DNA of 64,000 nt from a virus (taxonomy: Duplodnaviria > Heunggongvirae > Uroviricota > Caudoviricetes), in IMG/VR virus record IMGVR_UViG_2671181027_000003, one strand, 5' to 3'. Position numbers and translations under genes: made by a program. The notes beneath the pieces are model-generated. The model had not been told where the DNA came from. It saw only the letters and a list, made by a program, of their open reading frames with translations, and ran no database searches. Of this stretch, positions 889-62,452 are shown piece by piece. Every line of letters starts with the position of its first letter. Positions within the stretch are counted from its first letter, which is position 1.

Positions 889-999
889 TATGCCAACTTC
901 CCAGACACATTCCCTTCCGTTTCCACTTCCAAAAACAGTCTCCAGTCGCTATGATTCGCCCATTATGATAAGTAAGTAGCTACCTATCAGGCGGAGCAC

Positions 1000-1725
1000 A
1001 TGAGCCAGATCTTCTTTAACACTATTAACAACGACCAGTACGACTTCATGACCGAGTGGGACACCACAGTCATGGACAAGTGGGTGGCCGAGAATATTGG
1101 GCTGTCACGCTGCAAGGATGAGGCGGAGCTGTTCGAGACAAAGTGGTTTGATTACCGCGACATGCACCCGCTTATGGCCACATGCCTCTTCACTGAGACA
1201 TACAAGCGCCAGTACTCATACATCATGCTGTCGCATGGCCGCGAACACTATGAGACGGCCCAGTTCACTACCGGTTTGAAACGTGTGCCGTATCAGGAGC
1301 TGTCGACGGCCAACAAAACGTCTCTCTGGAAAGCACGCCAATTTGCCGACCAGTACTGCTGCTCTTATGACTACTTCATTTCTACCGTTCTTTCCGCAGC
1401 TGCACGCCGTCTGTGGGACAAATTACCTCGCCCCCAGCATCTCTGGCAGCCCGAGCTGATTGAGATATTCGAAGAGAAGTTAGCCAAACGCGCTGTAACC
1501 CGTCTGGATGACTCTCTGGTGAGTTTTAAGCATCTGGGAGACATGCAGCACGACCCGATTCAAGAACGCTATTTTGAGTGGGTTCTGGAGCGTCTGCGTG
1601 GCATTACCCGAGACAAACGCGTCCGCATCATCTTCTCCGCTGTCTGGTTGATGGAAATCGTGCCTGAGCGTGTGATTTACGCGCACTTCCCGGAAGAACT
1701 GGAAGAAGCACGGCGATTCTGTTGA
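1000..1725 (+). CDS. hypothetical protein
   Basis: 241-aa ORF. The palindromic motif lies at 966-989 just upstream. Codon usage matches the core genes. Confidence 0.55.
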   Translation: MSQIFFNTINNDQYDFMTEWDTTVMDKWVAENIGLSRCKDEAELFETKWFDYRDMHPLMATCLFTETYKRQYSYIMLSHGREHYETAQFTTGLKRVPYQELSTANKTSLWKARQFADQYCCSYDYFISTVLSAAARRLWDKLPRPQHLWQPELIEIFEEKLAKRAVTRLDDSLVSFKHLGDMQHDPIQERYFEWVLERLRGITRDKRVRIIFSAVWLMEIVPERVIYAHFPEELEEARRFC

Positions 1726-1785
1726 TCCCCTATTTGGCTTTTTTAGTATTAGAAAACAAATTGTTTAAGCACCAAAGGAAAGCAC

Positions 1786-3126
1786 ATGACCGAACTTTGC
1801 CACACAGGACGAGGGTTGTCTGAAGAGTTCGACGACGACTTCCAGAATCGACTCGCAGCCTACTTCTGTCGCGACCATGAGTTTCTGACTCGCGCCGGTG
1901 ATCTGGTTGCGCCAAACCAGTTCTCCAATGCGGCCAACGCCATTCTTGTTAACATGGTGTCGGGCTACTACAGAATGTATAAGAGCGCACCATCATCGTC
2001 GGCCATCCTCGACATGCTCAAACGCGCCAAACGCGATAAGACGATCCGCGAAGAGCTGTTCCCCGACGTCGTTGAGGCGTTTAAGCGGATTCTCGCTGAG
2101 AAGCTGTCAGATACGGCGTACATGGTCGACCAGGTTGCGACGTTTGCCAAAAGCGTAGCGTTCGACGACGCGCTGATTAAAGCGGCTGAGATGAAAGAGA
2201 AGGGCGATTTCCAGGGCGCGATGGCAATCATGGCCAAAGTCCAGCAAATCGGCTCTAACGAAGCGACCGGCATCTACGATTACTTCTCTGAGTCAGCAGA
2301 GCGTTACAAGGCGCGTGAGTACGAAGCGTCCGACGATTACGTGCCAAACAGCATCACAACGGGCCTACCGCTGCTCGACAAGCTGCTTTACCAGAAAGGC
2401 TGGGCAAAGCGTGAAATGGTGCTGTTCATGGGCTTCGCGAAGTCTGGTAAATCGACGGCGATGGGTGAGTTCTCCATCAACGCCACGCTTGCCGGTTACA
2501 ACGTCCTGTATCTGTCGCTGGAAGTTCACACCTCCATTCTGTCAGATCGCTTTGACGCACGTCTGTCTGAGACCGAAATGTCCAAGCTGGTGGAGCGCCG
2601 CGACGACGTCCATCGCAAACTGGCAGAGCTGGGCGCGACGAAAGGCGTGGGGAGCTTGTGGATTGTTGAACGACCGTCCGGAAGCATGTCGCCTGCAGAT
2701 CTGGATCGTATGTTGGGCAGCATGAAAGCCAATGGCATGATCCCCGACATGGTCGTGGTCGACTACGCTGACCTGATGCGTGCCAGCTACGACCTCCGCG
2801 ACGACCGAGCCAACATTCGCAGCATCTACACTGACCTGCGTGCGCTGTACGACAAACACAACGTTGCCGGCATCACTGCATCGCAGACTAACAGAGAAGG
2901 TGGTGCTTCAGAGGTGGCCACAATGATGCACGCAGCGGACAACATCGAGAAGGTGCGTATCGCTGACCTCGTTATCACGATCAACAAAACGGAAGAGGAA
3001 GAAGCGAAAGGCGAAGCGCGTCTGTACTTCGCTGGTTCACGTAACCAGAAAGGCGGCGTAAGCATCCGCGTTAAGCAGAACCTCGAACAAATGCGATTCA
3101 TCGAACGCATTATGGACGTCCTCTAA
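1786..3126 (+). CDS. replicative DNA helicase, DnaB family
   Basis: Walker A GFAKSGKST, a DnaB-like RecA-fold C-terminal domain and the segment SQTNREG. RBS aaaggaaagcacATG. Confidence 0.8.
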   Translation: MTELCHTGRGLSEEFDDDFQNRLAAYFCRDHEFLTRAGDLVAPNQFSNAANAILVNMVSGYYRMYKSAPSSSAILDMLKRAKRDKTIREELFPDVVEAFKRILAEKLSDTAYMVDQVATFAKSVAFDDALIKAAEMKEKGDFQGAMAIMAKVQQIGSNEATGIYDYFSESAERYKAREYEASDDYVPNSITTGLPLLDKLLYQKGWAKREMVLFMGFAKSGKSTAMGEFSINATLAGYNVLYLSLEVHTSILSDRFDARLSETEMSKLVERRDDVHRKLAELGATKGVGSLWIVERPSGSMSPADLDRMLGSMKANGMIPDMVVVDYADLMRASYDLRDDRANIRSIYTDLRALYDKHNVAGITASQTNREGGASEVATMMHAADNIEKVRIADLVITINKTEEEEAKGEARLYFAGSRNQKGGVSIRVKQNLEQMRFIERIMDVL

Positions 3127-3214
3127 AAAAGAAGGCGTGGGGAAACGCTCTCCACGCCGATCTCCATAAGAGAACAAATTTTCTCTTTTGCCAAAGCCAC
3201 AAAAGAAAAAACAC

Positions 3215-4400: not shown

Positions 4401-5453
4401 TTAAGTTGTGGGAGACAGACGGTTCAGGACAAACGCAGCGATATTATTTAGTGCTATATTTAGCAAACTTGCATCGTATGTTTGGTCGTTATCCTTAGGT
4501 TTAAAATTGCTGATACTGACTGTCTCACTGTGCTCATTTTCATAGAAACGTTTACTGCTTGAATCTAGGCGTTTGAGGACGTAAATTTGCCCAAATTCAA
4601 TCCACTCACCTTCACCATTGAGTCCGCTCCCTGTCTTGACTGAGATGAAGTACTTTGCCAGCTTGGTTGTAATGCAGTCTTCATTTTTTTCTATGCAAAC
4701 CTTAATGCCGGCGGCTTTCAAACTACGATAAATGCTGTTTGGATATGCCCCACTATAGATTTCGCTGCTTTCAATGATAATGACGTCGTATTCTTCCTTT
4801 GGCTCAATAGATAAAGCTTCAGGCTCCAAATCATCCTTGTGAAAAATAAATCCTAAAAGACGCTCAAGTTCATCTGTTAATTTGAACATGGGGTTCGCTT
4901 GGATCTCGCCAGCCCTGTCTTCGTAGACGAGACCCGAGGTTATGAGCTTATTTAGCGATCTCAGAGCCATTCCACTTTTTTGTGATGTGAGACTAACTTG
5001 GGCTAATACAGTTGATTTATAGCCTTTTATTGGCGAGCTTGTTGTGATGTAAAGTTTGCGCGCATATTCAATATCAAAGCAGGTTAACCCACTCAGTATG
5101 TGGATAAAAAATAGTTTTTCATCGTCGTTAAGGCTGCTGCGGGCTAGGCTTACCGTCAAGCGAATGTAGTATTCTGTTTTCTTGTCTTCATCATCAAGCA
5201 CGAGCTTTTTGACTAACGCCGAAAAGTGTTCTCTTGAGATATCGACCTCATCGTCGCAAATTTCACCAATGCCCATAATGTAACGGTTGAATCGATCACG
5301 ACAAGTCGTCGCATTTATCTCTGAGAACAACGTGAACATTTTTTCCGCTGCCTCAATATGAGGTCCAACAAGCGGTATAGATTTGGCAAACGCCAAACCA
5401 GTTTCTTTCAATACCTTCCTGTGTTGCATCACGTTTTTGGACAACGTTGTCAT
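4401..5453 (-). CDS. hypothetical protein, AT-rich opposite-strand insertion
   Basis: 350-aa ORF on the minus strand, wedged between + strand core genes. It is AT-rich with no recognisable motif. Confidence 0.5.
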   Translation of the reverse strand: MTTLSKNVMQHRKVLKETGLAFAKSIPLVGPHIEAAEKMFTLFSEINATTCRDRFNRYIMGIGEICDDEVDISREHFSALVKKLVLDDEDKKTEYYIRLTVSLARSSLNDDEKLFFIHILSGLTCFDIEYARKLYITTSSPIKGYKSTVLAQVSLTSQKSGMALRSLNKLITSGLVYEDRAGEIQANPMFKLTDELERLLGFIFHKDDLEPEALSIEPKEEYDVIIIESSEIYSGAYPNSIYRSLKAAGIKVCIEKNEDCITTKLAKYFISVKTGSGLNGEGEWIEFGQIYVLKRLDSSSKRFYENEHSETVSISNFKPKDNDQTYDASLLNIALNNIAAFVLNRLSPTT

Positions 5454-5636
5454 AGACCTAAGCCTTGTGTGTTTAACGTATTAGTTAAGTGAAATCATAT
5501 AGAAGTGACCTGACAGCTACAACTGGACAAGATTAAGAGCATTTTTTATAAACGAAACTAAACGCCTACATTGATAAGTAGATACATACTTATTTTTCTG
5601 TAAGAATATGCGCGACGAAGGAATTGAGGAACCTTT

Positions 5637-6472: not shown

Positions 6473-6512
6473 ACTGCGCTCAATAAGTAAGTACACGACT
6501 ACGGTTAGAAGC

Positions 6513-8870: not shown

Positions 8871-9172
8871 GCAATTTGACCTCTTTCGACTGGTGGCTGG
8901 CAACCTACCTTGTGGCGGCCGGCGTCGGATATGCCTTTTACATTGGTCAGTTAATCGTAAAGCTACTGCTGATCAGATTTGCCAGCCATAAACGCATAGA
9001 CGACGGTCTGTGGCGCCTGGGTTCTCTGCTGGAGACTCACTACGGCGAACTGAAGGAGAACGAAACTATCACTATTCAAGCGAAGCGTTTTACGGCCATC
9101 ATCACGAGAAAGCCGGAACAGAAGGTGAGTTTGATCAAAAAGATAGCAACTGAACGGGTTACAGAAAAATAA
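8867..9172 (+). CDS. membrane protein
   Basis: 101-aa ORF with an N-terminal hydrophobic helix. ATGA overlap with the preceding gene. Confidence 0.45.
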   Translation: MSNLTSFDWWLATYLVAAGVGYAFYIGQLIVKLLLIRFASHKRIDDGLWRLGSLLETHYGELKENETITIQAKRFTAIITRKPEQKVSLIKKIATERVTEK

Positions 9173-9921
9173 GTATTTACTTACTTATCTAATATGTATA
9201 AGATTCACTTGTTTTCGTTGAGACGCGACTGTTTGAACGTTAAATATAACTGCAAACGAAGATACATACCTGGCAGTAGCCTAAGAAGCCAAACACCAGC
9301 GAGGTCAGTTTCCAGCCTCGTCACCAAAGTGGGACACACTGAGCGAGTGTGATTGCAGAACGCAGGATAGGGCATGTTGCACCACCCATGCCCTATTCAA
9401 TGAAGTAACAGGATGGGCGGTTGGTTTTCCTCATTCCATTCCATCATCCCGGTTTCAGCCAGCTGACCGTCCATCCTGTTACGTCATTTCCATTACTTAT
9501 GTCGTTTAATCTTGGGTTAAAAGCGGCGACGTAACCCGGCTGGCTTGGTTAGCCAGCGCACAACGTTGAGGTCACTGTTTTTCTTTTAATCATACAGGTG
9601 ATTCCACAGAGCTGTAGTAACTGATCAATATGTTGGGTCGAACATAAATCGGTTCAGTGGCCTCAACGTTGTGAAAGCAGGATTCTTTAACCCTCTGGTG
9701 AAATCATTGTTGCCTATGTAGCCCCTGGTTTCACAACATGAATGATTCCATACATCCAATAAGATCGAAGAATCTGGCGGCCATCAACCGCCGAGAAGGA
9801 TTCCAGCTCTTTGCTCTATGTGAGCGAGCCACAAGCCTCGTCTGGCACTAACGTAAAGTGCAAGTTGCGGGAAAGTTCCTGGTTGCCTGGTTGTCCATCA
9901 ACAAGTACCGCCGCGAAATAT

Positions 9922-9996: not shown

Positions 9997-9997
9997 A

Positions 9998-12938: not shown

Positions 12939-13051
12939 GTCATGACGATATTCCTCTACATGGTAGAGGGATAACACATGCAAAATAGGTAATGACTTAC
13001 CTATTATTTGTCGGTATAGTTCTTTCAGTGACTCACTTGAAAGGACTCAAT

Positions 13052-13825: not shown

Positions 13826-13835
13826 GGGAAAGCCA

Positions 13836-15693: not shown

Positions 15694-16800
15694 ATGAAAA
15701 ACACCTTTGATAAAGCACGCGCAGCAGAAAACACCTCTCGGGAAGCCATCGAGTACCTCGAACGCGCTTCCAGTTTGTCGGCAATGTCGACCGCCAAATT
15801 CGACGGAGACATGTCGTTTTCTTCCGCCTTCATGTTATTCACTCGCTTATCTTTACTGATAACGAGGCGTCGACCTGAAATAGCTGTTCATTGTGTTTTG
15901 ATACATGTGATGCCGCATATCTCTGAAGTAAAGGTAAGTGATATAAGTAGGGTCTTGGTCAACCAGCTGGTGAACCCGCTGATACTGGAAGGCAAGATCG
16001 TCCAGGGCAGACGTGTGTTCTCCCTGATGAAACAGTTCCTGAGCTGGTGTGCCTTTCAGGGGCTGATTGATACATCACCGTTGAATGATATGTCGCTCAA
16101 CAGAGTTGCCGGTGGCGCAAAGCCAGTACCGCGCGAACGTAAGCTGACCGACGCCGAGGTCTGGGTATTCTGGAACGTCTGGGATTACTTCAATGTGTGC
16201 GAAGGTACAAAGTGGGCGGCCAGGCTCTGTCTTGTTGCTGCCAGACGACCCGATGAAGTGCTCCGGGCCAGAAAGGATGAGTTCAACCTTCAACGTGATG
16301 TATGGAATCAAGGTACGCGTAACAAATCGGCCAGACAGCACGCGCTGCCGTTAAGCCCATTAATGCGCAAATGCGTGGAAGAGTTGTTTGAGTACGGGAA
16401 AGGCAGCCAGTGGCTCGTTCCTTCGAATAAGAAGAAGGGCGTGGATACGCCAATGTCTAAGGTGGCCATCGCCCAGGCACTGAGAAGGATACTAGAACGA
16501 CCTGAGTTGATGGAGGTTGAGTCATTTACTCCACGCGACCTGAGACGTACAGCGCGTAGTTATTTCCCCGCGCTGGGGATCAATCAGGAAGTTGCTCGTA
16601 AGATTATGAACCACAGCCTTGAAGGGATAGATCGCGTCTATGATCGCCACGATTATATGGATGAGATGCGAGACGCCTTGAACAATTTCTCAGCGTACAT
16701 CGCATCTATCGTTAATCAAACAGACTTAGACGAGATAGACCACAAATTCAAGGGAGATCGTCTAGCCACCGAGCTTATTCGTGTAAATTTCTCACAGTGA
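15694..16800 (+). CDS. tyrosine recombinase (integrase or resolvase family)
   Basis: C-terminal catalytic signature: RRPDEV, TPRDLRRTARSYF (H/R-x-x-R box) and RVYDRHDY (catalytic Tyr region). Confidence 0.7.
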   Translation: MKNTFDKARAAENTSREAIEYLERASSLSAMSTAKFDGDMSFSSAFMLFTRLSLLITRRRPEIAVHCVLIHVMPHISEVKVSDISRVLVNQLVNPLILEGKIVQGRRVFSLMKQFLSWCAFQGLIDTSPLNDMSLNRVAGGAKPVPRERKLTDAEVWVFWNVWDYFNVCEGTKWAARLCLVAARRPDEVLRARKDEFNLQRDVWNQGTRNKSARQHALPLSPLMRKCVEELFEYGKGSQWLVPSNKKKGVDTPMSKVAIAQALRRILERPELMEVESFTPRDLRRTARSYFPALGINQEVARKIMNHSLEGIDRVYDRHDYMDEMRDALNNFSAYIASIVNQTDLDEIDHKFKGDRLATELIRVNFSQ

Positions 16801-17178
16801 CTTGATGGCCTCGACCACCTTTTCTGATGCGCCCTGCTGACCGTTAAAACGGTTACGGAACGCTTCTAGAACAAGTTTTTCATCAGCGGAGAGAGGCGCA
16901 GTTCCCTCTTCGCGAAAAAATTCGAGTAACTCAGGGTGGCGTTCCTCCAGAACCATCAGCATCAGTCGAACCGGGTCCGCATCCAGCGCTTTAGCTAAAG
17001 CTCGAACTTTATCTACCGGCAGAGGGATTTTGCCACTTTTAATGAGAGAGAGGTTGTTGGCGTTCTTGTACCCAACCTCTTTGGCAATGGTGGCCTGACT
17101 TTTAGGCGAGATTGTGATTAACGAGTCAATGTAAGCTGCGTAGCGACCTTGTTTGATCTCTGTTTCGTTGGTAGCCAT
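16792..17178 (-). CDS. HTH XRE-family transcriptional regulator (candidate repressor)
   Basis: SQATIAKEVGYKNANNLSLIKSGK helix-turn-helix. Transcribed divergently from the downstream cluster. Confidence 0.6.
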   Translation of the reverse strand: MATNETEIKQGRYAAYIDSLITISPKSQATIAKEVGYKNANNLSLIKSGKIPLPVDKVRALAKALDADPVRLMLMVLEERHPELLEFFREEGTAPLSADEKLVLEAFRNRFNGQQGASEKVVEAIKSL

Positions 17179-17442
17179 GTAGTGAACCTTGCGTGTTTTG
17201 TTTATCTCTGGTAAGTGCTTACTGATATTACAGCAAAGGCCAGGGTTGTAAAGACTTATCTATTTAATTTCGATAGGTACTAAGCCCCTGGAACACCGCT
17301 ATTATACTATGTTTTTTAGGCAATTTGTCACTATTAGCTTACAGGCAAAAGTAAGACGTATCTGATATAGACGCATTCCATATTGATACAATAGGTAGTA
17401 GTATTGCCAAACTTTCAAATGTGTTCAGTTGGATGATATGAA

Positions 17443-17764: not shown

Positions 17765-20137
17765 ATGTCCAAAGCCATGACCAGATCTGTGCTGAAAGAG
17801 GTACAGGACTTCCGCGACTGCGTAAAACGAGTTGTAGCGATGCTTTCAGGTAAACAGATACCTGTTGCAGAGCGAGGCAATGAAGCATATGTCCGCTACA
17901 ACCGGCGCGGCGAACCAGTGCTGGTAAATATCCCATCTATACCTGACGACGCATCGCCAACCCTCATGAACGCAGTGCGTGGTTTTCTCGACCATGAGGT
18001 AGCCCATATCCTCTTTACTGATCCGAAAGTCGCAATGAAGATGCGCGAGAAAGGAAAGGCTCCGTCTACCGGGCTTTGGAACGCGCTGGAAGACGTTTTT
18101 ATTGAACGCAGAATGGGACAGGTATTCAACGGAACTCGTCGCAATTTGCTGGCCACACAGAACCTGGTGATCGACAAATACTTCAAGGGCAAAGTGTCAG
18201 AGGCGGTTTCAATCTGCCACGGCAACCAGCGTGAATTGTTCCTGAAATTCTTCCTTTGCCCGGTCGTCCGCGCCTGGGATGGCCAAAGCCCTTTCATCGA
18301 CTTTATGGAAGAACACTGGCACCTCATCGATAAGCCTGTAGCCTTGCTCAAAGAGCATGGGATCGACGTGGCCGTTCGCAATATGTCGAACACAGAAGAC
18401 TGTGTGAAGGTCGCAGCTGCTATCGCCCAAATCATGCAGGATATGAAAGACAAGCCAGAGGGCAAATTACCAGAGCTGAAATCGTCTGCTAGGAAGCCGT
18501 CGAAGAGTGAGGACGAGTCAGAGGAAACCCCAGAAGCCGGTGATGAACCGACTCATAGTGAATCAGCACCAAAGCGTACCAAAGGCGAAGACGACGACAA
18601 GGAAGAACAAGAAGATGATGCCTCAGAAGAGGAAGAGTCTGGGGATTCTGATTTGCCTGAATCAGTAGATAGGGACTTACCTACAGAAGATAAAGAAATT
18701 AGTGATACAGAAAGTAAATATACAGAAGCAGGCGAAGAGGAATCAGGAGACACCCCAGAATCCGATGATGCCGGCATGGAATCAGGTGATTCTGATGACG
18801 AAGGTGGTAGTGATGACACTGGCTCTCCAACGCTTGGTGATGGAATTCGCGAAGACGCCGATGACTCCGATGGTTATGGCTCTGGCGCCGCTGGCGATGG
18901 TGATAGTGATGACGGCGAAGACTCTGATGCTGGTCACGGGGAGTCCGAAGGAGAAGGAGAAGAGGAAGAGGAAGATGACGCAGCCGATCACACAGACGGC
19001 GAAGGCAAAGAAAATGAAGATGCCGCGGAAGCGCCTGAAGACAGTGAGTCAGGTTTTGTTCCCGCTCCGGATGAAATGACTCTGGAGGAAGCACTCAAGG
19101 CGCTCGACGAGATGGGAGACGGAACAGGCGAAATGACCGAAGACGCGCTGTCGGCCACCATCAGCAAAGAGCTTATGAGTACCTCACTTTCTGAGTATCG
19201 CCCATACGATCGTTCATACGACTTTATCGGGTTGATTGATGAGGCTGAAGAGCATGTAAAGCGCACCAGAAAGACGTTCGGCGCAATCCCAATGCACTCA
19301 CCGGTCGATCGCTACCGCATGGTTCCGGAAGGTAGAAAACTCTTTGAACTGAAAATCGAAAAACATCTGTCAGCAGGCGTTTCTTCGACTCTGGCCAAAG
19401 ACCTGGAGCGAGCTATCGCCAGCCGCAACCGAGTTCAGTTTATCCCAGGCCAGAGACGTGGGCGGATACATGGCGCGAACCTGTATCGTCTGGCAATGAA
19501 CGACGACCGCGTATTCCGCAAGAAAGAAGACCACAGAGCCGTGAACGCGTGCGTCCAGCAGGTGATCGACTTGTCCGGCTCAATGGGCGGCAGGAAGATT
19601 CAACTGGCACTCGCCAGCGCCTACACCATTGCGGATGCACTGGATCGTATCAATGTGCCTAACATCATCACCGGCTTTACCACGTTTGGTAGTCCGGATT
19701 ATGAAACCATGTCGAAGCGCGGGTTTACTCGTTTCGAGGCGCTAATGCTGCCCATTATCAAAAACTGGAATGAGAAAGCTAACTCTCCAGAGATCCGCGC
19801 CCGCATGGGCTGCGTGTGTGAGACGTTCCCCCTGCTCAATAACGTCGATGGTGAGAGCGTCGCGCAGCTGGCGACTCTGTTTGCAGGGCGAATGGAGGAC
19901 AAGAAGATCATGCTGGTTATGAGCGACGGGGCGCCATGTGCTGCAGGCGATGGGTTCCATCAGCATTTGCGAACCGTCACCAAAGAAATTGAGACGTTGA
20001 GTGACATCGATTTGATGGCTATCGGCGTTCTGACCGACGCACCACGGCGTTACTACAAAAATTACGCACTGGTAAACAGCGTAGAAGAGTTAGGGCCGTC
20101 AGTCGTCACAGAGTTATCTCGTATCATTCTTGGGTAA
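17765..20137 (+). CDS. CobT-like vWA-domain protein with a long acidic low-complexity linker
   Basis: C-terminal vWA MIDAS motif, VIDLSGSMGG. A D/E/S/G-rich acidic region spans about 18480-19100. Start at an internal Met with RBS aacaaggaaattctcATG. Confidence 0.65.
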   Translation: MSKAMTRSVLKEVQDFRDCVKRVVAMLSGKQIPVAERGNEAYVRYNRRGEPVLVNIPSIPDDASPTLMNAVRGFLDHEVAHILFTDPKVAMKMREKGKAPSTGLWNALEDVFIERRMGQVFNGTRRNLLATQNLVIDKYFKGKVSEAVSICHGNQRELFLKFFLCPVVRAWDGQSPFIDFMEEHWHLIDKPVALLKEHGIDVAVRNMSNTEDCVKVAAAIAQIMQDMKDKPEGKLPELKSSARKPSKSEDESEETPEAGDEPTHSESAPKRTKGEDDDKEEQEDDASEEEESGDSDLPESVDRDLPTEDKEISDTESKYTEAGEEESGDTPESDDAGMESGDSDDEGGSDDTGSPTLGDGIREDADDSDGYGSGAAGDGDSDDGEDSDAGHGESEGEGEEEEEDDAADHTDGEGKENEDAAEAPEDSESGFVPAPDEMTLEEALKALDEMGDGTGEMTEDALSATISKELMSTSLSEYRPYDRSYDFIGLIDEAEEHVKRTRKTFGAIPMHSPVDRYRMVPEGRKLFELKIEKHLSAGVSSTLAKDLERAIASRNRVQFIPGQRRGRIHGANLYRLAMNDDRVFRKKEDHRAVNACVQQVIDLSGSMGGRKIQLALASAYTIADALDRINVPNIITGFTTFGSPDYETMSKRGFTRFEALMLPIIKNWNEKANSPEIRARMGCVCETFPLLNNVDGESVAQLATLFAGRMEDKKIMLVMSDGAPCAAGDGFHQHLRTVTKEIETLSDIDLMAIGVLTDAPRRYYKNYALVNSVEELGPSVVTELSRIILG

Positions 20138-20233
20138 TAGCTTTACCCGTAAAAATAAGTAATCACTTACTATACAGCCTGATATATTTATATAAGATAT
20201 ACCCCACGAACGACAAACAGTAAGGAAAAACAC

Positions 20234-27795: not shown

Positions 27796-27914
27796 TTTAT
27801 GCTAGATCGTAAGTAAGTACTGATCTATTATTCTTCTCGCTCGAAAGAGCCACGAATAAACGAACGCCCAACGCGCATAGCGCCAATGGCCACAATCACA
27901 ACAAGGAGAAATAC

Positions 27915-31293: not shown

Positions 31294-31384
31294 TCACAAG
31301 GCGTCCGTTGGACGCCTTTTTTATACTTGAAAATATATAAGTACTTACTTATCATTTCTGCACAAAAACGACAAAAGGAAACAC

Positions 31385-33347: not shown

Positions 33348-33417
33348 ACACAATGATTGTGCGCCGCATGGCGCACATTAATATAAATAAGTACTTACCA
33401 ACAAGGAGAAAACACAT

Positions 33418-33691: not shown

Positions 33692-33730
33692 TATTTACAG
33701 CAAAAAATATATAAGTTAGTATCTACCTAT

Positions 33731-33910
33731 CATGAAAACTGTATTAGACACTTTATTACTTATTGTCTCGATAGCTTTTGTGCTCGATTGCATCTTCACC
33801 GGAGCAATCCGTAAAGCGCTGGCGCCTGTTAATGGTGCGATGGTTAATGCGCTGGCCGTAGTGCTGGTATTCGACTCAGCATTCGGCGTTATCAAAGGAG
33901 TCGTGGCATG
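33731..33910 (+). CDS. small membrane protein
   Basis: 59-aa two-helix hydrophobic ORF below the ORF-track cutoff. ATGA overlap with the next gene. Confidence 0.3.
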
Positions 33911-38047: not shown

Positions 38048-38223
38048 TAAGCCCCCCATACGGTTGAGATATTGTCACCACCATAAAAATAAGTAGGTAT
38101 TTACTTATATATTTTGTCATAATCATGTGCCTGTAGATTTTCTTCTGTGCCGTGTTGTCTGGGTTGTTCGCCTCTCAAACACGCTTAACATCTGTATCAA
38201 AATAACCACAAAGGAAAAGACAC

Positions 38224-42772: not shown

Positions 42773-42849
42773 GTCGGTAATTGATAGGTAGGTGCTTATC
42801 TATTAACATGAGGCCACTATATTTAGTGGCCTTTTTTATTGGGTGATAC

Positions 42850-46498: not shown

Positions 46499-47367
46499 TG
46501 AAATTTACGAAACTGACCGATCATCTGAAACTTGCCGCAGACAAACTCGTGGGATTTAAGCCAGAGCCTTACGAGTTGAATCCTGGTTTTGGCAAGGCAA
46601 CGGAAAGCATCTACTTGATGGTTGACCAGTTCCACACACTGTTTCAGCACCCACGCCGTGCCATTCCAGATCCGGCATTACTGCGTCTGCGTGCCAAGCT
46701 GATCCACGAAGAAGCTGTTACCGAGGGCATCCCGGCAGCCAAAAATGGGGATATGACGGCGCTGCTGGACGCGATGGCGGACTTCCTTTACGTGGGCGTC
46801 GGCACAATGGTGGCCATCAAAGGCGGCATCTCTACGGGCATGAGTTACTACACCCAAGAGCAGAGTGTTGATCGCTTCATCCACACCATCATGGTTCCGG
46901 GCAACACGGTCTTTGACGATATGGCCATCCCGTTTGAAGAAGCAAAAGAAGCTGCATTAATGCTGAATGCGCTGGCTGACAAACTCGAAGCGAAGCCGAT
47001 AAGCGATTCCGAATTGGTGCAGGAGCTGCGCCGCGTGATGAACAAAATCTACGTTGCCTGCATGATGACCTACCGCCTGGCTGATTTTCTCGGTATCGAT
47101 ATTGTTGAGCTGGTGGCAGAAATCCACCGTTCCAACATGACCAAGCTGTGGCCGGCTGACGCCGAAGAGCGTCGTGTGGCGGTAGAGAATTGCAAATACG
47201 ACAAGGAAGACATGGGCTTCCGCCATGCTGAAGGGACTGACATGATGATTGGATTCAGAATTTCTGATGGCAAGATCCTCAAATCCCCAACCTACAGCGA
47301 TGTGGATCTGACTCGCTTTGTTGAGAAGGCGAAATCCTCATCTCTTTACGAGATGGTAAAAAAATAA
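46499..47367 (+). CDS. MazG-like all-alpha NTP pyrophosphohydrolase (putative)
   Basis: LIHEEAVTEGIPA...DMTALLDAMADFLYVGVG resembles the MazG EExxE...D..LGD motif. RBS aaaggaaagaaagaagacATG. Confidence 0.45.
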
Positions 47368-47545
47368 TTGTAAGTATCCACTTATCATTATATATTGCCT
47401 GGGCGTGTTTTTATTGTCCAAGTTCTTAATTGCTCATTGCAATGGTGGCCTAAGAGCCACCATTTTTTTTACTCCCCTCCTAGCCTTACACACTTCTGAT
47501 AGATAAACTTGTATAAAATAATATGTATGTACTTACCTATCTTGT

Positions 47546-53427: not shown

Positions 53428-53612
53428 TGTTCCCCAACCCGATCTAAAGCCCCCTGAGAGATTTAGGATGCTGGGTAAGCTAATTGCATACCCAGCATCG
53501 ATAAAACGCGCCAGAGAGCTTCCCGTTTGCGAATCTGGCGCGTTCTTCTTTGTTTGCTATCCGTTGGATTAAATGAAAAAATAGGTAAGTATTTACCTAT
53601 CAGGGCAGAGTA

Positions 53613-54206: not shown

Positions 54207-54227
54207 ACACCAGCCTGGGAGTTAGTT

Positions 54228-54409: not shown

Positions 54410-54640
54410 ATGGTATACCCGACGAACGTCGTAGCGCTCGTTGAGAGCGATTTTCTGACCAAAGTGCGCGACATGATGAAAGATCGCGATAAGGCTTTCA
54501 GTCTCTACGAATGGTCGCTCAAATGTCTTCATTCAGGCGAGCACAAAGAGCTGGTGGAGCAGCTGTTAGGGGAACTCATCAATGAGGTGTTTGCCCTGAA
54601 CGTCCAGCTTCATGGTCGAGAAAATAATCAATCGGAATAA
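54410..54640 (+). CDS. hypothetical small protein
   Basis: 76-aa ORF with the consensus RBS context taaggaaaactatcATG. Confidence 0.45.
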   Translation: MVYPTNVVALVESDFLTKVRDMMKDRDKAFSLYEWSLKCLHSGEHKELVEQLLGELINEVFALNVQLHGRENNQSE

Positions 54641-55304
54641 TAGGTAAGTACTTACCATTTAAAACGCAGATCGCCAGTGATAAAATCTACCCGCTTTCCG
54701 GATTGGTTCCGGCAGCTCGACCTGATGGGTGGGGGATAGCGTCACTGGCGTCAGGTTTAAAAAAGCTTACTACCAGCGTAGAACCGGCACCGTTTAGGGG
54801 TTGGGGAAGGGGGAACCAAAGTGGGCAGAGAGAAGGGTCACTTTATGATTGTCGAGTCTGGAGTGTTTCGAGAGGTTGAATCCAGAACTCCCCTTCATAA
54901 AGTGTGGGAAGATCTCGGTTCTGGGGTGCTGTCATCCATAACTTCCCAAGCCTAAGCTGGCAGTAGACTTAGGTCATAACTTTTCAGGTTATGTAACGAC
55001 CAGGTTGGTGAGGAAATTTTGTACTCACCTCCCTGGGAGAGTATTACCTGAAAAGACAACCTCTCACTTCGTTCGAGGTGAACTTCACTCACTTCGTTCG
55101 TTCAGTTCAGGTTTTATTAAACCTGTTCTGGGAAGTAAGTTTCTCTTTTCTAAAAAAATTTTAATATTTACACGCACGCGTGCGCACACGCGCGAGGGGA
55201 AAAATCGCCCATCGTAATGTCTTCAATGTGCCAGGAGCGGACGTTTAATAATTATGCAAGGATATGCTAAAAACAGGCTGTCACAGTTAAACTAACCAAT
55301 AAAT

Positions 55305-55340: not shown

Positions 55341-55430
55341 ACGAAGGGTATTGATATTCCGTATATTCAGGGGTGGAAAACCTGATGTTTTTTCGTTTCC
55401 TGCAGTTTCTATATATGGATTTGACATTAT

Positions 55431-56261: not shown

Positions 56262-56263
56262 TA

Positions 56264-57272: not shown

Positions 57273-57875
57273 CTAACTGCATTGTAGCTGCGAGATTTCA
57301 CCATCGATGGCTTCTATAACCTGTTTATAGCGCAGCATGACCTCTTCATGAATCATCATTAATCCGCGGCCGTACTCTGTGGCTAGGATTGTGTATCTTT
57401 TCAGGTGTGCAAGATGCTCTTTGTTGCCAGTAATGTCACTGGCAACCTGCGTGGAGTCCAGCCTTTCGATAAGGGCATTATTGCCGCGATAGGAATCAAT
57501 TAGGCTTCTTGCGCTTGTATAAAAAGCCACAATTTTTGATAGTGTTTCTCTATGAACTTCAGGTAGAGATGCCGAGTTAGCTTCATAGAAAGTGAAGTAG
57601 TTTTGAGTAATGGGGAAAATGTTATCGAACGGTGAGTTCCGGTCGTATTTTTCGATTTCCTCTTCCATTCTGGCCTTATACAACTTAATCAGTGAGTCTA
57701 TTTCCTCTCTGACACCCAAGAGCGTTGTTATACGCTTCTCTCTGGCCGCTGTTGCCTGCTGTTTTGCCTGCTGTTTCACCTGAGCTGTCACTCCTTTCAT
57801 CGTGAAACAGCCACCTAAAAGAGCCGCTAAAAATGCGGAGATGAGATCTGAATATTCGTGCCAGAAGGTTAGCAT
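57273..57875 (-). CDS. hypothetical N-terminally anchored coiled-coil protein
   Basis: 200 aa with an N-terminal hydrophobic helix LISAFLAALLGGCF. Confidence 0.45.
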   Translation of the reverse strand: MLTFWHEYSDLISAFLAALLGGCFTMKGVTAQVKQQAKQQATAAREKRITTLLGVREEIDSLIKLYKARMEEEIEKYDRNSPFDNIFPITQNYFTFYEANSASLPEVHRETLSKIVAFYTSARSLIDSYRGNNALIERLDSTQVASDITGNKEHLAHLKRYTILATEYGRGLMMIHEEVMLRYKQVIEAIDGEISQLQCS

Positions 57876-58269
57876 GGCTAAAATTCCATTGGGTTAAATT
57901 GTGTCTATTTAACCACATCATGATACGAAGATACCTTCCAAAATGTTGCCATGAACTCGTCTGTTGTCGTCTTGGGTATTAGCACCGTGCTCTCTCGTTA
58001 TCTAGGGCTTGGTCCAATCCTCTCTCAAAGCAGATCTATTAAACGGCCTGCTCTGATCGCCGCCTACTCCGCAGCCGATATGCCTCACAAGCGTGACATT
58101 GGATTTTTGTCACAAAATGATAGGTAAGTATTTACCTATCATTTTAAATCAGGTATCTTACCGTTCGTCAGGATGACGAAGTACCGGTTAGGTACTGTTC
58201 CAGGATGGAACGCCAAAAGGCGGCTGGCTTGGCCAGCCGCAACTCTTTCTGACACTGAATGGAATCCAA

Positions 58270-60567: not shown

Positions 60568-60582
60568 TATCTCACCTGCCGA

Positions 60583-60612
60583 CAGGGGGCGAAAGCCCCC
60601 TTTTTTACGCCT
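60583..60612 (+). terminator. rho-independent terminator
   Basis: gacagggggcgaaagcccccttttttacgcc. Confidence 0.7.
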
Positions 60613-60708
60613 TAAATCAGCTGCAACGCCTGTGAATGCTGCTTTTACGCCTTTTCAACTTTGGGAAAATAACACCAACAAGAAAACAATTTATTTAATG
60701 GTGCAATC

Positions 60709-62394
60709 ATGAATACAGCCCTTTCCATCATTGACGCTATCACCCCAAACACTGATATCGACTACCGGCAGGAAATGAACGTCATCCACGAAATTGTGGC
60801 CGAGTGCGAGAAAGAGATCGCATTCATGCATCAGGTTCACGACTTCGTTTATGGCGACGAACGCCACAACATGATTAACCGCCTGCTGCGACTCAACCAC
60901 CGGCCGGATGACGAGCGCACACGCTTTAACAGAGCCTGGCTGGATAAGGTCGACCTTGAATGGGTGAAACAGAATATCTGGGCCGAGTACTGGAAGAAGG
61001 TCACGGATATGACAAACGTTCTGCTGATCATGCCAGCTTCCCGCCGCGACGAGTGGCGGGAGCAGTTCATCGAGGGCAAGCAGGAGACCATCAGGACTGA
61101 CAGAACCGGCTACCAGATGAAGGTTAAGGAGTTCGTTGGTGTGCCGGAGTTCAAAGCAGAAACGGTCATCCCCACGATGCTCAATCTGCTGAATGACAGG
61201 CACAAATATCTCTCTGAGCGCGTGTATGGCTTGTTTAAAGCGCTGAGTCCTGCCCACAAGACCAATAAGACGAACGGCTTTAGCGAGCGTCTGATCATCG
61301 CCAACTGCATTTCCGAGTTCTGGCGGGACAGCGTCAGCGTGAACTACCGAAAAGAGGACTACATCGACGACCTGCGCGTCATGCTTCATTTCTTCGCGCA
61401 CAAAGAGTTCATCACCATCAACCGCACAACTGAGATGCTATCTGCTGCGTACCGGGCAAACGACTGCCAGACCGGTGACTGGATGAATGTCGACGGAAAC
61501 CTGATGCGCGTGAAGATGTTCAAGAACGGCAACGTTCACTTTGAAATACATCCTGACGTGGCCTGGAAGCTGAATGAGGTGCTGGCTTACAGTATGCCTG
61601 CAGCAATCCCGGCGCCATGCCGTACTGCACCCAAAACACGGGCACCAAAAGAGTTCGGGTTAATCCAGAAGACGATCTCCGAGCCGGTTCGTACCGCGCT
61701 GCGCGACGGGCGATTCAGCAAAGACAAAGGCGTCTGGTACTTCTCTGATTCCAACCTACAGAAGTCACAGGTGGAAGAGCTTGAGCGCACAATGAACTTC
61801 ATTGGCGGCGTGCAGGAGAAAAAGCACTGGCAGTTCCCGTATGAGATCGGCCATACGCTCAATACGATTGTGGCCACCGGCTTAATACCGGATACAAAAT
61901 CACACCAGTTCTACCCTACCCCACGTTTGATAGCGGAGTACGTTGCCAGAGCCATCGAGCTGAAGCCAGGTGAGAAGCTGCTGGAGCCTGAAGCCGGGCG
62001 CGGAGATCTGTTGGCCTGCATCGACGCCAATCCGGAAGACGTTACCTGCATAGAAGTCGCACCTCTCTTCGCTGATATCCTGCTTGGCAAGGGGTACACA
62101 AATACGGTCTGCTGTGACTTCATGAAGTGGTCTGAGGACAACGCAGGCTATCAGTTCGACAAAATCGTCATGAACCCGCCCTACTCTCTTGGCCGTCACA
62201 GAGAGCATACGCTGGCCGCGCTGGAGCATCTTAAAGTCGGCGGGCGACTGGTGGCTGTACTGCCGGGTGATGCGCCAGTTCTGAACTGGATGTCGCTGGA
62301 TAATTACGTTTATGCCAAAGGGAAGTCGTTTACTGACGAGTTTGAAGACACCGGAATCACTGTCAGCGTATACGTTTTCAAGCGTGCAAAATGA
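60709..62394 (+). CDS. DNA methyltransferase (N6-adenine/N4-cytosine class) with a roughly 380-aa N-terminal domain of unknown function
   Basis: FYPTP (motif X), LEPEAGRGDL (motif I, SAM binding), NPPYS (motif IV) in the C-terminal third. Confidence 0.6.
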   Translation: MNTALSIIDAITPNTDIDYRQEMNVIHEIVAECEKEIAFMHQVHDFVYGDERHNMINRLLRLNHRPDDERTRFNRAWLDKVDLEWVKQNIWAEYWKKVTDMTNVLLIMPASRRDEWREQFIEGKQETIRTDRTGYQMKVKEFVGVPEFKAETVIPTMLNLLNDRHKYLSERVYGLFKALSPAHKTNKTNGFSERLIIANCISEFWRDSVSVNYRKEDYIDDLRVMLHFFAHKEFITINRTTEMLSAAYRANDCQTGDWMNVDGNLMRVKMFKNGNVHFEIHPDVAWKLNEVLAYSMPAAIPAPCRTAPKTRAPKEFGLIQKTISEPVRTALRDGRFSKDKGVWYFSDSNLQKSQVEELERTMNFIGGVQEKKHWQFPYEIGHTLNTIVATGLIPDTKSHQFYPTPRLIAEYVARAIELKPGEKLLEPEAGRGDLLACIDANPEDVTCIEVAPLFADILLGKGYTNTVCCDFMKWSEDNAGYQFDKIVMNPPYSLGRHREHTLAALEHLKVGGRLVAVLPGDAPVLNWMSLDNYVYAKGKSFTDEFEDTGITVSVYVFKRAK

Positions 62395-62452
62395 TAGGTA
62401 AATACTTACCTAATTTGTGTAAGAATAGAGCCACTTTATCAGAGGTAAACAC

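Follow-up and report, generated by a model that had tools for sequence, protein, structure and literature searches.

A palindrome shared by many intergenic regions

What does a palindrome that recurs ahead of many genes of a phage-plasmid do, and which protein would read it? The window, i.e., the whole stretch of 64,000 nucleotides analysed here, represents an SSU5-like phage-plasmid and is 99.9% identical to Citrobacter freundii pCAV1741-110. A palindromic 22-bp matrix for the motif consensus AATARGTAAGTACTTACYTATT, whose GTA-N6-TAC core is invariant, was built iteratively from the window, its training set. Strong copies (at least 18 bits) number 17 in the window and 0 in 100 dinucleotide shuffles, and applied to intergenic DNA alone the matrix finds 21 matches against 0.015 expected. 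Applied to the parent plasmid beyond the window (46.9 kb), the same window-trained matrix yields 9 matches scoring 15 bits or more, where 0.01 are expected, and phage Cyrano, which is 81% identical, has 21 scoring 18 bits or more. Over the whole plasmid, 22 of the 24 matches are intergenic, intergenic DNA making up 14.4% of the sequence (binomial P = 6e-17), and 24 of 89 intergenic gaps bear a site. The recurrent palindrome is thus real, and the intergenic enrichment over coding DNA, on which an earlier note had made its claim depend, extends to the genome as a whole; the entire element carries about 25 copies between genes.

Several details of the earlier note need revision. The 22-mer proposed there as a consensus, GATAGGTAAGTACTTACCTATC, has zero exact occurrences, while copies with up to three mismatches to it number 5 against 0 expected, the best (58119-58140) differing at one position. 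Among its 16 sites, 14 stand at 18-31 bits (starting at 967, 5573, 9168, 20154, 27808, 31332, 33382, 33710, 38088, 47520, 53580, 54639, 58119 and 62393), one at 47365-47386 is weak (15.2 bits), and 6481-6497 reduces to a left half-site of 6.6 bits. For some of the upheld sites the register moves by a few bases. Five sites had been overlooked: 12984-13005, 42783-42804, 18664-18685 and the weak 17206-17227 and 17243-17264. The supposed copies in terminator loops belong to another element; the candidates at 834-870 (2.9 bits at best) and 54248 (17 bits) fall within two long hairpin terminators, in the AT-rich upper part of the stem. The distance to the start codon, given as usually 20-150 bp, is actually 0-170 bp, and several copies overlap the preceding stop codon.

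A search of 185,579 species genomes with the strict consensus returned multi-copy matches only in three SSU5-like contigs (two from Kluyvera, one from Buttiauxella); the remaining 22 matches were solitary, roughly as many as chance would produce. Conservation in related phage-plasmids, a check suggested earlier, is borne out: the motif lies at orthologous junctions in Cyrano, in Y. pestis pFra/pMT1 and in phage SSU5, and recurs in diverged Serratia and Photorhabdus elements. Among close relatives, the palindromes are just modestly better conserved than their flanks.

Placement relative to promoters, genes and terminators

Three placements recur: copies cover the -35 region belonging to a conserved -10 element, stand just past a likely start site, or lie within an operon near a stop codon or terminator. 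Seven plasmid sites, six of them in the window, are followed after 6-9 bp by a conserved -10 block (TGTAAGAAT, TGTCATAAT, TGTATAAGAT, TATAGT), and the DNA between palindrome and block is variable. Where 4401-5453(-) and 5637(+) diverge, the copy at 5573..5594 (25.7 bits) is followed 7 bp downstream by a TGT-AAGAAT -10-like element, so that the palindrome covers the -35 region. This arrangement is kept in Cyrano, as is that of 62393..62414 (28.2 bits), which overlaps the stop codon of 60709-62394, lies 38 bp before 62453 and is followed by TGT-AAGAAT after 6 bp. The copy at 9168..9189 (27.2 bits) overlaps the stop codon of 8867-9172 and precedes a conserved TGTATAAGAT -10 block; in a footprint of about 20 relatives, palindrome and block are conserved and the flanks variable. 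The same copy heads a tRNA-Asn and plastic cargo region. TATAGT stands 9 bp downstream of 12984..13005 (27.5 bits), itself 46 bp before phoH (13052), and TGT-CATAAT 8 bp downstream of 38088..38109 (27.4 bits), upstream of sbcD (38224). Between the stop codon of a CobT-like gene (20137) and the start of an AAA ATPase gene (20234), the copy at 20154..20175 (18.1 bits) is followed after 15 bp by a conserved TATAAGAT.

For at least six copies a start codon is 0-16 bp away, the Shine-Dalgarno sequence lying between the two. The copy at 967..988 (GATAAGTAAGTAGCTACCTATC, 27.1 bits) is a likely operator at about +5 to +26: a conserved promoter-like element, TTCCAA-17-TATGAT (927-955), precedes it, and the ATG at 1000 follows after 11 bp. 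The one at 53580..53601 (31.4 bits) follows a terminator and precedes the adenine methyltransferase ATG (53613) by 11 bp; 33382..33403 (23.2 bits) follows a hairpin, 12 bp before the ATG at 33416; 47520..47541 (28.0 bits) is 16 bp from the thymidylate synthase start codon; and 33710..33731 (23.2 bits), of the intra-operon class and identical in Cyrano, abuts the ATG at 33732. The copy at 31332..31353 (27.8 bits) follows the terminator of a recombinase gene, 31 bp before 31385. Four copies are found between a stop codon and a terminator. At 42783..42804 (25.9 bits) the order is stop codon, palindrome, terminator-like hairpin and nrdA (42850), while 54639..54660 (27.3 bits) and the weak 47365..47386 overlap the stop codons of 54410-54640 and 46498-47367, respectively, and 27808..27829 (19.9 bits) lies between a stop at 27795 and a gp32-like SSB gene (27915). 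The best copy, 58119..58140 (31.4 bits), occupies the divergent region 57273-57875(-) / 58270(+) and heads the operon containing the Rha gene. Coding DNA of the window holds a single copy that reaches 18 bits, 18664..18685 (18.8 bits); it lies within the CobT-like gene and is conserved in pFra and SSU5.

Taken over all sites, -10-like hexamers show no excess downstream of the palindrome when compared with the mirror-image interval upstream (13 vs 14 sites), and sigma-70 promoters with a -35 in the window are not enriched (19 vs 22.5 expected). The suggestion of a dedicated promoter element is unsupported: the motif is symmetric, its distance to a -10 element is not fixed, and it is often found next to terminators or within 0-16 bp of a start codon.

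Alternative readings of the palindrome

The motif is a symmetric protein site in double-stranded DNA rather than a hairpin of the RNA. Across 176 distinct sites, picked with the matrix, positions 7/16 are T/A in all, and positions 6/17 are G-C in 119, A.C in 30, G.T in 23 and A-T in only 3, so mirrored positions show no compensation; on the transcribed strand, G.T and A.C are equally frequent (19 each). Many copies do lie within polycistronic transcripts, 0-16 nt before start codons, as would suit a hairpin 5' of the ribosome-binding site acting in processing or stability or recognised by an RNA-binding regulator. The element also encodes a strong Flag1_repress (FljA) family protein (1e-95), and Salmonella FljA acts post-transcriptionally on the fliC 5' UTR. 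However, besides the absence of compensation and of any sense-strand preference for G.U over A.C, folding predictions give weak hairpins (0 to -8 kcal/mol in 15 of 16 sites) and leave two sites unfolded. The stem sequence is conserved and the loop variable, the opposite of usual protein-read RNA hairpins; no Rfam family matches the motif, the E. coli fliC 5' UTR does not resemble it, and copies occur in divergent promoter regions as well, all of which makes action in mRNA very unlikely. The same weak, AT-rich stems, with no consistent U/T tract, argue against weak bidirectional intrinsic terminators, an idea to which, as to sites of a host nucleoid or regulatory protein, the A-rich upstream and T-rich downstream flanks of some copies and their frequent position right after stop codons lend some support. 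Several copies, however, adjoin separate GC-rich terminators, and the strict consensus is multi-copy nowhere beyond SSU5-like contigs among the species genomes searched. From one SSU5-like lineage to another, among Enterobacterales isolates and unassigned metagenome contigs, the motif also changes, which an element-encoded binder fits better than one conserved host protein, and we regard both host-protein sites and terminators as highly improbable.

If the binder is encoded by the element, it could be a lytic-cycle activator, e.g., the FljA-like or a small unannotated protein, with the palindrome replacing the -35 of middle or late promoters like a T4 MotA box or a P1 Lpa site. The seven sites 6-9 bp upstream of a -10-like element have no recognisable -35, and this spacing puts the site centre near -31, close to the position of the MotA box. 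Sigma-70 promoters with a -35 are, as noted, not enriched, and silence of palindrome-headed genes in a lysogen is equally expected from an absent activator. Against this stand the symmetry of the motif, a -10 spacing that is not fixed at most sites, and the copies next to start codons or between stop codon and terminator. In addition, the promoter predicted for the repressor gene itself has copies over its -35 and +1, three annotated records name no MotA, AsiA, Lpa or sigma homologue, and it is the XRE helix with which co-variation was observed (see below). Phage SSU5 (host in its record: S. Typhimurium LT2) is missing the segment that corresponds to window 10037-17676, with the integrase, XRE and 70-aa ORF, yet keeps the palindromes, which argues for repression, not activation; an activator site is unlikely. 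Finally, the arm-spacer-arm architecture, with inverted arms around a variable 6-bp centre as in lox or dif, brings to mind core-type sites of the element's tyrosine recombinase, or hotspots of module exchange. A conserved tyrosine integrase gene adjoins the XRE gene, and the copies at 53580 and 58119, identical over 21 bp, flank a variable region. Nevertheless, pCAV-Cyrano alignment blocks do not end preferentially at site-bearing gaps (7 of 24 block ends, with 24 of 89 gaps bearing sites), the replaced segment 55246-57192 is not bounded by palindromes, and gene order is colinear family-wide despite some 25 sites. Arms of 7-8 bp are moreover short for a recombinase core and the motif is built into promoters, leaving recombination sites barely credible.

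A candidate repressor and dispersed silencing

We consider the palindrome to be, probably, a double-stranded DNA operator for an element-encoded dimeric helix-turn-helix repressor, most likely the XRE/CI-like protein of 128 aa encoded at 16792..17178 (- strand). The earlier idea of an operator of an element-encoded regulator is consistent with a symmetric, DNA-level, SSU5-like-specific site conserved at orthologous junctions, and the XRE protein named there remains the best candidate binder on circumstantial grounds: promoter copies, fold, lysogen expression and helix co-variation. Its structure model is a five-helix Cro/CI domain, with C.AhdI, 434 Cro and P22 c2 as nearest folds (rmsd 1.5-1.9 A over 61-63 residues). 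At 27 and 64-69 bp from its start codon, motif copies overlap a predicted TTTACA-16-TAATAT promoter. The nearer, CTCTGGTAAGTGCTTACTGATA with core GGTAAGTGCTTAC (17206..17227, 13.2 bits), covers the -10/+1 and keeps its position in Cyrano and an E. fergusonii plasmid; the farther, GGGTTGTAAAGACTTATCTATT (17243..17264, 14.3 bits), contains the -35 (TTTACA, - strand). Both are weak in the window (13-14 bits), but copies stand at the corresponding positions even in Serratia and Photorhabdus, and there they are strong, the ortholog of 17243..17264 reaching 23.8 and 18.6 bits, respectively. No motif copy was found in the window just upstream of the neighbouring 70-aa early gene, and the Photorhabdus element keeps XRE (52% identity) without this ORF.

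The recognition helix NNLSLIKSGK is nearly invariant wherever the motif occurs. The lineage with NNLSNIKTGR carries a dispersed palindrome ATAGGTAG-N4-CTACCTAT (7 vs 0.21 expected), that with NMISMFKRGE has AGTCA-N4-TGACT (9 vs 0.48 expected), and that with NNITMIKQGK ATAAGTAAGCGCTTACTTAT-like sites. The helix therefore co-varies with the dispersed palindrome over four lineages, in which all other proteins have diverged too. A second regulator, the FljA-like protein, is conserved in close SSU5-like relatives (82-99% identical), and a weak motif copy lies 44 bp upstream of its operon. The proposed role of Rha as antagonist of XRE is unsupported: at the corresponding position the Cyrano record lists TciA/TciB-like proteins and no gene annotated as Rha, yet Cyrano is ciprofloxacin-inducible. 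A more promising lead to induction is a conserved LexA box that precedes the integrase gene; this gene and the XRE gene are convergent.

In a Cyrano lysogen, the XRE ortholog is expressed about 10-fold above background (96 vs 9.8), while nearly all + strand genes are at background, a pattern that favours repression over activation. Expression falls from 55 to 6 across the terminator and palindrome orthologous to 967..988 and from 31.5 to 7.5 across the ortholog of 38088..38109. It should be noted that CYRAN_34, downstream of the ortholog of 5573..5594, reaches 44, 4.5 times background, with neighbours at 9-11; this fits a promoter at the site, but a palindrome-associated promoter that is not silent counts against a repressor. 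By a tally from the expression and site tables, only 2 of about 7 junctions between expressed and silent genes bear a palindrome, so a roadblock role draws little weight from these data.

From the observed motif, its statistics, placement, conservation, DNA-level symmetry and co-variation with the XRE helix, we infer binding by XRE, repression upon binding and an elongation block at intra-operon copies. In the plasmid-prophage state, repressor on some 25 operators across a genome of about 100-110 kb would keep the virus silent. Around one third of the copies cover the -35/spacer of promoters having only a (TG-)extended -10, and a protein bound there, centred near -31, would block RNA polymerase binding. 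Copies just downstream of a likely start site, before the ribosome-binding site, may block initiation or early elongation. The remaining copies, which are intra-operon and placed after a stop codon ahead of the following gene or by an intrinsic terminator, would hold a dimer acting as a roadblock to read-through, e.g., from expressed partition genes. The two weaker copies over the repressor's own predicted promoter would provide negative autoregulation.

Such an arrangement has precedents. In P1, 22 C1 operators are dispersed over the genome (PMC8546580). Like the element studied here, P1 is an enterobacterial plasmid prophage in which one repressor serves many operators scattered over ~100 kb, with copies at the repressor's own gene as well. 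P1 operators, however, are asymmetric 17-mers (ATTGCTCTAATAAATTT), not a 20-22 bp palindrome, and no relation to C1 was detected for the small Cro/CI-type HTH candidate described here. The C1 operators are bound by a monomer, and P1 late genes have a separate activator, Lpa, whereas the palindrome here is also found throughout the structural module. Cluster A mycobacteriophages (L5 gp71 type) carry more than 20 repressor sites genome-wide, at promoters and in short intra-operon intergenic spaces, where these stoperators are proposed to stop elongation (PMC9283540). Each is a 13-mer without symmetry, is recognised by a monomer that has two DNA-binding domains, and works in only one orientation relative to transcription (PMC9283540). 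The intra-operon copies here likewise adjoin stop codons, ribosome-binding sites and terminators, but the motif is symmetric and without orientation, and the elongation block is proposed from placement.

The closest match in kind may be Streptomyces phage phiC31, for which Ingham et al. in 1994 reportedly described an inverted repeat of ~17 bp (CIR) linked to autoregulation of the repressor gene c, with well-conserved copies recurring intergenically across the genome. These sites are said to be, as here, palindromic, intergenic and present at the repressor gene; host phylum, sequence and repressor family differ, and phiC31 reportedly integrates and forms no plasmid prophage. The five-helix HTH domain of the XRE model resembles CI and Cro of lambda, 434 and P22 and the controller (C) proteins of restriction-modification systems, which act as dimers on palindromic operators; as in lambda, 434 and P22, operators lie between the repressor gene and a divergently oriented early gene. 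Those systems, however, use few operators at one or two loci, in contrast to ~25 genome-wide, and the protein here lacks an S24 autocleavage domain, so induction must work in another way. If the repressor reading holds, the element is a further case of the silencing by dispersed operators already known from the C1 operators of P1 and the stoperators of L5.

A dispersed palindrome in an SSU5-type phage-plasmid

Apart from a replaced segment at 55246-57192, the entire window aligns at 99.9% identity with the Citrobacter freundii plasmid pCAV1741-110 (NZ_CP011655.1, 109,688 bp), the stretch 20000-32000 being 100% identical to this plasmid and 97.7% identical to Salmonella phage SSU5, and 824 plasmid records from Klebsiella, Escherichia, Enterobacter, Yersinia, Salmonella and Citrobacter match it. 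These alignments identify the window, at the level of sequence, as an SSU5-type phage-plasmid, a kind of element common in Enterobacterales. Yersinia pestis pFra/pMT1 belongs to the same family, as does the S. Typhi plasmid pHCM2. Carriers of resistance genes also occur among SSU5-like elements (PMC9600943). The replaced segment holds two minus-strand ORFs (55431-56261 and 56264-56854) and stands in place of a 737-bp segment of pCAV1741-110.

The palindrome can be written as the 22-mer GATAGGTAAGTACTTACCTATC, with G6, T7 and A8 and their mirror positions as presumed key positions. The exact 22-mer of the earlier note does not occur, the closest copy having one mismatch; up to three mismatches give five copies against none expected. 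Refinement on the window brings a palindromic 22-bp weight matrix to AATARGTAAGTACTTACYTATT, and this matrix yields 17 window matches of at least 18 bits, compared with none in 100 dinucleotide shuffles. Genome-wide motif work relied on the full sequence and annotation of pCAV1741-110, where 24 matches of at least 18 bits (0.03 expected) are spread through all modules of the 109.7 kb. Intergenic DNA, which makes up 14.4% of the plasmid, holds 22 of the 24 (P = 6e-17); sites are carried by 24 of 89 intergenic gaps, and concatenated intergenic DNA alone gives 21 matches versus 0.015 expected. Training bias is avoided in the 46.9 kb of plasmid outside the window, in which the window-trained matrix finds nine sites (0.01 expected), some of them at junctions of the terminase, capsid, tail and lysis modules. 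The recurrence of a palindrome near genes, as claimed earlier, is thereby confirmed and extended. Fourteen of the 16 sites originally proposed hold up, the one at 47365 being weak and that at 6481 a half-site only; the list lacked the copies at 12984 and 42783, one at 18664 within coding DNA, and two weak ones in the promoter region of the candidate repressor gene. The two supposed copies in terminator loops are not the motif; each belongs to the AT-rich upper stem of a long hairpin (-32 and -23 kcal/mol) with a T run after it. These related hairpins, at 825-884 and 54226-54299, have a GC clamp, CCTGCTTC...GAAGCAGG, and an AT-rich upper stem of about 12 bp containing TATAAATA. Both are distinct from the palindrome, are conserved in the 81%-identical E. 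coli phage Cyrano, and probably act as strong terminators that insulate the partition operon and the methyltransferase gene.

Conservation in related phage-plasmids, suggested in the earlier note as a check, is borne out: the motif is kept at orthologous junctions of phage SSU5, of Cyrano, where 21 copies score 18 bits or more, and of Y. pestis pFra/pMT1, where 34 kb hold 10 copies of 13 bits or more; the diverged elements of Serratia and Photorhabdus have it as well. When 185,579 species genomes were scanned once with a strict 18-base consensus, 25 hits were obtained, of which three, all SSU5-like contigs (two Kluyvera, one Buttiauxella), are multi-copy and the other 22 are single, about the chance expectation. 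As multiple copies are confined to SSU5-like contigs, the motif belongs to the element, and a host regulon is ruled out. In a scan of viral contigs with a 14-base core pattern, single chance matches predominate among the matches listed. The searchable literature mentions neither the motif nor any SSU5 operator, a prior description elsewhere keeping some small chance, and it does not describe the lysis-lysogeny control of SSU5-like phage-plasmids.

Nature and setting of the sites

The substitution pattern of the palindrome speaks for a site that a protein reads on double-stranded DNA. Its arms are conserved in sequence and its centre is most variable, an arrangement characteristic of a symmetric dimer on DNA, protein-read RNA hairpins usually showing the opposite; the site is symmetric and has no strand bias. 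Among 176 distinct family sites, positions 7/16 are T/A throughout (the sites having been selected with the matrix), and positions 6/17 are G-C in 119, A.C in 30, G.T in 23 and A-T in 3, a change on one side not being mirrored on the other. Mirrored mismatches in the plasmid comprise 19 G.T and 19 A.C, and because nearly all genes lie on one strand, this equality does not favour G.U pairing in a transcript. Predicted RNA hairpins reach 0 to -8 kcal/mol at 15 of the 16 window sites, two being unfolded, the U tract is not consistent (0-6 T in the 9-nt tail of window sites), and Rfam matched tRNA alone, with no family for the palindrome. An RNA hairpin or translational operator is thus ruled out by pairing statistics, weak folds and the lack of an Rfam match, and an intrinsic terminator by the lack of a stable GC-rich hairpin followed by a U tract. 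Covariation at positions 5/18 looks significant within one plasmid (2x2 table with rows 11, 0 and 4, 7; about 0.002 by estimate); it is only partial in the 176 sites, 36% of which are non-Watson-Crick there, a tally in Cyrano finds it not kept, and it is attributed to shared ancestry of the sites. Both the RNA-element and the terminator readings are rejected.

Seven of the 24 plasmid sites, six of them in the window, occupy a -35 region, with a -10-like hexamer 6-9 bp downstream (TGT-AAGAAT twice, TGT-CATAAT, TGA-TATATT, TATAGT, TATTAT and TAAGAT), four of the seven hexamers having an upstream TG; this spacing puts the site centre near -31. At 5573, 9168, 38088 and 62393 both palindrome and -10 block are conserved in relatives of about 81% identity, and the DNA between and around them varies. 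Measured against its flanks in close relatives, the palindrome is better conserved at three of four sites, by small margins. In the Cyrano lysogen (LF82), the gene behind one -35-covering site reads 44 versus 9-11 for its neighbours, which suggests a real promoter there. Other copies precede a ribosome-binding site, 11-16 bp from the start codon; at 967 a conserved upstream TTCCAA-17-TATGAT, as read from the sequence, would place the start of transcription a few bases ahead of the palindrome. Among the copies within operons, some overlap a stop codon, others directly adjoin a start codon and others lie between a stop codon and a GC-rich terminator, as at the terminase-portal junction, after the capsid gene, before nrdA and at 33710, and also in tail and other operons. 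The motif itself is not the dedicated promoter element that had been considered, since -10-like hexamers show no downstream excess overall (13 sites downstream, 14 on the mirrored upstream side). Likely -10 elements at 5601-5609, 9197-9206, 20191-20198 and 62420-62428 read TAAGAAT or TATAAGAT, often after TG, and this unusual form is similar to the TAAGTA core of the palindrome.

The stretch 9190-10745, which follows the palindrome and promoter at 9168, holds a tRNA-Asn gene (9922-9996) and no annotated CDS. At the matching place Y. pestis pFra carries the F1 capsule operon (caf1R/M/A/caf1; L221 8296-14700). Resistance genes of SSU5-like elements all insert in one locus, with PhoH and DNA ligase among the neighbours in a figure legend (PMC9600943), and the same two genes flank 9190-10745 in the window. 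Taken with the pFra capsule operon, this gene order locates a cargo hotspot directly behind one of the best-conserved putative operator-promoter pairs.

An activator site is disfavoured by the symmetry of the motif, its variable spacing and the presence of copies at ribosome-binding sites, at terminators and over the predicted promoter of the candidate repressor; elements such as the T4 MotA box or P1 Lpa type are further opposed by the lack of a constant distance to the -10, which is 6-9 bp for only 7 of the 24 copies. A recombination or module-boundary site is disfavoured as well: block ends between pCAV1741-110 and Cyrano fall in site-bearing gaps in 7 of 24 cases, against 24 of 89 among gaps at large and so with no enrichment, and the replaced segment of the window is not bounded by copies. 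The interpretation of the palindrome as an operator is best supported and seems probable.

The XRE protein as candidate binder

Two conserved regulators remain after Pfam and PHROGs annotation, namely the XRE protein (16792-17178, minus strand; 128 aa, WP_000224608.1), with a weak HTH_31 match and a phrog_8 match, and an FljA-like Flag1_repress protein encoded outside the window (NZ_CP011655.1 6586-7113, minus strand), with a full-length Pfam match at 1e-95. Binding of the palindrome by the XRE protein has, in our estimate, a slightly better than even chance; because all proteins differ between the lineages compared, this is an assignment that we infer. Six lines of evidence speak for XRE. Two copies of the motif, weak in the window (13-14 bits), are found 27 and 64-69 bp away from the XRE start codon. 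In the predicted XRE promoter, TTTACA-16-TAATAT, the -35 would fall within the second of these copies and the transcription start within the first. Copies at the position of the second score 23.8 bits in Serratia and 18.6 bits in Photorhabdus, in surroundings that cannot be aligned. In the Photorhabdus element another copy, of 24 bits, precedes the divergent early gene by 19 bp, and this element keeps XRE (52% identity) but not the adjacent 70-aa ORF.

In homologues of 48% to 100% identity that accompany the motif, the recognition helix NNLSLIKSGK is nearly invariant. Searches of viral contigs with the single XRE and FljA-like proteins gave close SSU5-like elements only and so could not discriminate, and distant XRE homologues with altered helices were found by profile search. 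The helix NNLSNIKTGR goes with the palindrome ATAGGTAG-N4-CTACCTAT (7 hits versus 0.21 expected, at one locus), position 9 being G in 83% of the half-sites that accompany it versus A in 70% here, and NNITMIKQGK goes with ATAAGTAAGCGCTTACTTAT-like sites. A GC-rich metagenomic relative of 34% identity combines NMISMFKRGE with AGTCA-N4-TGACT (9 hits versus 0.48 expected), mostly at gene junctions and once 137 bp upstream of its XRE gene, and a chromosomal homologue of 39% identity has GATAAGTAAGCG upstream of its gene. Recognition helix and motif thus co-vary in four lineages.

The AlphaFold model of XRE (mean pLDDT 79) comprises a five-helix Cro/CI domain and three short helices, the latter forming the C-terminal part, in which Pfam matches no S24 peptidase domain. 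Its helices (residues 12-80) superpose on those of C.AhdI, 434 Cro and P22 c2 with rmsd of 1.5-1.9 A over 61-63 residues, and these proteins bind palindromes as dimers. Neither XRE nor the FljA-like protein has a match among solved structures by sequence search. The XRE ortholog reads 96 in the Cyrano lysogen, compared with a background of 9.8, and the FljA-like gene 18. The Rha protein, proposed earlier as the antagonist of the repressor, finds no support in this role: it is not conserved, and Cyrano has no Rha-annotated gene at that position, where TciA/TciB-like proteins are listed. FljA is known as the repressor of phase-1 flagellin in Salmonella. The FljA-like gene is the last of a minus-strand UvsW-helicase operon, and its product could be another regulator of the element, or else a moron product directed at host flagellin. 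As to the known target of FljA, the E. coli fliC 5' UTR bears no likeness to the palindrome.

The tyrosine integrase gene (15694-16800, plus strand) converges on the XRE gene with a 9-bp overlap and is preceded, 27 bp upstream, by a near-consensus LexA (SOS) box, TACTGTTTATGCATACAGTA, at 15648-15667. The position of this box is conserved in Y. pestis pFra, in Cyrano and in the relatives from E. fergusonii and Serratia. Mitomycin C or ciprofloxacin induces SSU5-like elements (PMC9600943, PMC9928086), and the LF82 integrase reads 5.6 in LB and 10.3 in macrophages (log2). As the repressor lacks a cleavage domain, SOS-driven antisense transcription into the XRE gene might serve as its route of induction. 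Cyrano has a second consensus LexA box, TACTGTATGTGTATACAGTA, at L005 39277-39296 (record 89277), 15 bp upstream of CYRAN_98, a 129-aa S24 'LexA-like peptidase' that reads 148 in the lysogen versus the 9.8 background. Between the 70-aa early ORF and a CobT-like gene lies a perfect 12-bp inverted repeat, CTGTACGAACAG-N9-CTGTTCGTACAG (17679-17711), with no T run after it; in the Cyrano lysogen, expression drops from 20 to 8 between the orthologs of these two genes, and the repeat may be a regulated terminator or another protein site.

The type phage SSU5 (NC_018843.1) lacks 7.6 kb matching window 10037-17676, that is phoH, glutaredoxin, two minus-strand genes, the integrase, the XRE repressor and the 70-aa early ORF. 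At its right end this deletion borders directly on the inverted repeat at 17679-17711, which SSU5 retains at the junction. With this segment gone, SSU5 looks like a natural repressor-less derivative of a phage-plasmid.

Proposed silencing of the element and its relation to known systems

The Cyrano lysogen keeps nearly all plus-strand genes at background, the expressed genes being minus-strand and maintenance genes with no copy or a weak copy of the motif. SSU5, whose record gives S. Typhimurium LT2 as host, has no XRE yet keeps the palindromes, so that XRE, if it is the binder, would be dispensable for lytic growth, which fits a repressor and not an activator of about 25 junctions. Site centres near -31 or just past the start site are typical positions of repression. 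For the copies inside operons a roadblock role is plausible: in the Cyrano lysogen, expression drops from 55 to 6 across the palindrome that follows the partition operon, a place that also has a terminator, and from 31.5 to 7.5 across the one before sbcD. A tally of the other junctions between expressed and silent genes finds no copy there, which leaves this role weakly supported.

The candidate system shares with Cro/CI switches the modelled five-helix HTH domain of the repressor and the placement of palindromes between repressor gene and divergent early gene, overlapping a predicted promoter; the RecA-stimulated self-cleavage of the lambda type, through a C-terminal S24 domain, has no counterpart in XRE. 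Conserved inverted repeats of phiC31 are the closest match in kind. Like P1, which has 22 dispersed asymmetric C1 operators (PMC8546580), the element carries at least 20 dispersed sites, with 24 copies of at least 18 bits over 109.7 kb, but here the site is a palindrome and the candidate repressor matches XRE/HTH families only. The operator and stoperator network of cluster A mycobacteriophages (PMC9283540) is similar in having sites within operons as well as at promoters; stoperators, however, are asymmetric 13-mers whose orientation follows transcription and which are bound by a monomeric two-domain repressor, whereas the present site is symmetric, and no mycobacteriophage immunity repressor appears among the best 50 fold matches listed for the XRE model. 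Since neither an asymmetric site nor monomer binding nor, for L5, orientation dependence is found, the system falls outside the P1 and L5 families.

It is tempting to hypothesize, tentatively and with the whole being rather unlikely to hold in full, that SSU5-type phage-plasmids are silenced by a symmetric counterpart of the mycobacteriophage stoperators, with immunity groups and induction by LexA-controlled antisense transcription from the integrase. One 128-aa CI-like dimer would occupy about 25 palindromes, blocking initiation at promoters and, at intra-operon junctions, stopping the elongating polymerase or occluding the ribosome-binding region. Repressor helix and operator would co-evolve, giving rise to separate immunity groups across the supergroup, and induction would proceed through the LexA-controlled integrase transcript running antisense into the repressor gene instead of through repressor cleavage.

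The analysis defines a putative operator and names a candidate repressor; it also maps about 25 presumably controlled junctions and brings out apparent immunity groups, in which helix and operator change together. P1, L5 and phiC31 already provide systems of this kind, so that the principle is not new; it is extended here to a further family, one that is widespread and of medical relevance. If true, the operator-repressor reading would predict which elements are homo-immune, provide a compact repressor-operator pair for engineering and show how a lytic programme of about 100 kb stays silent in a multicopy plasmid.
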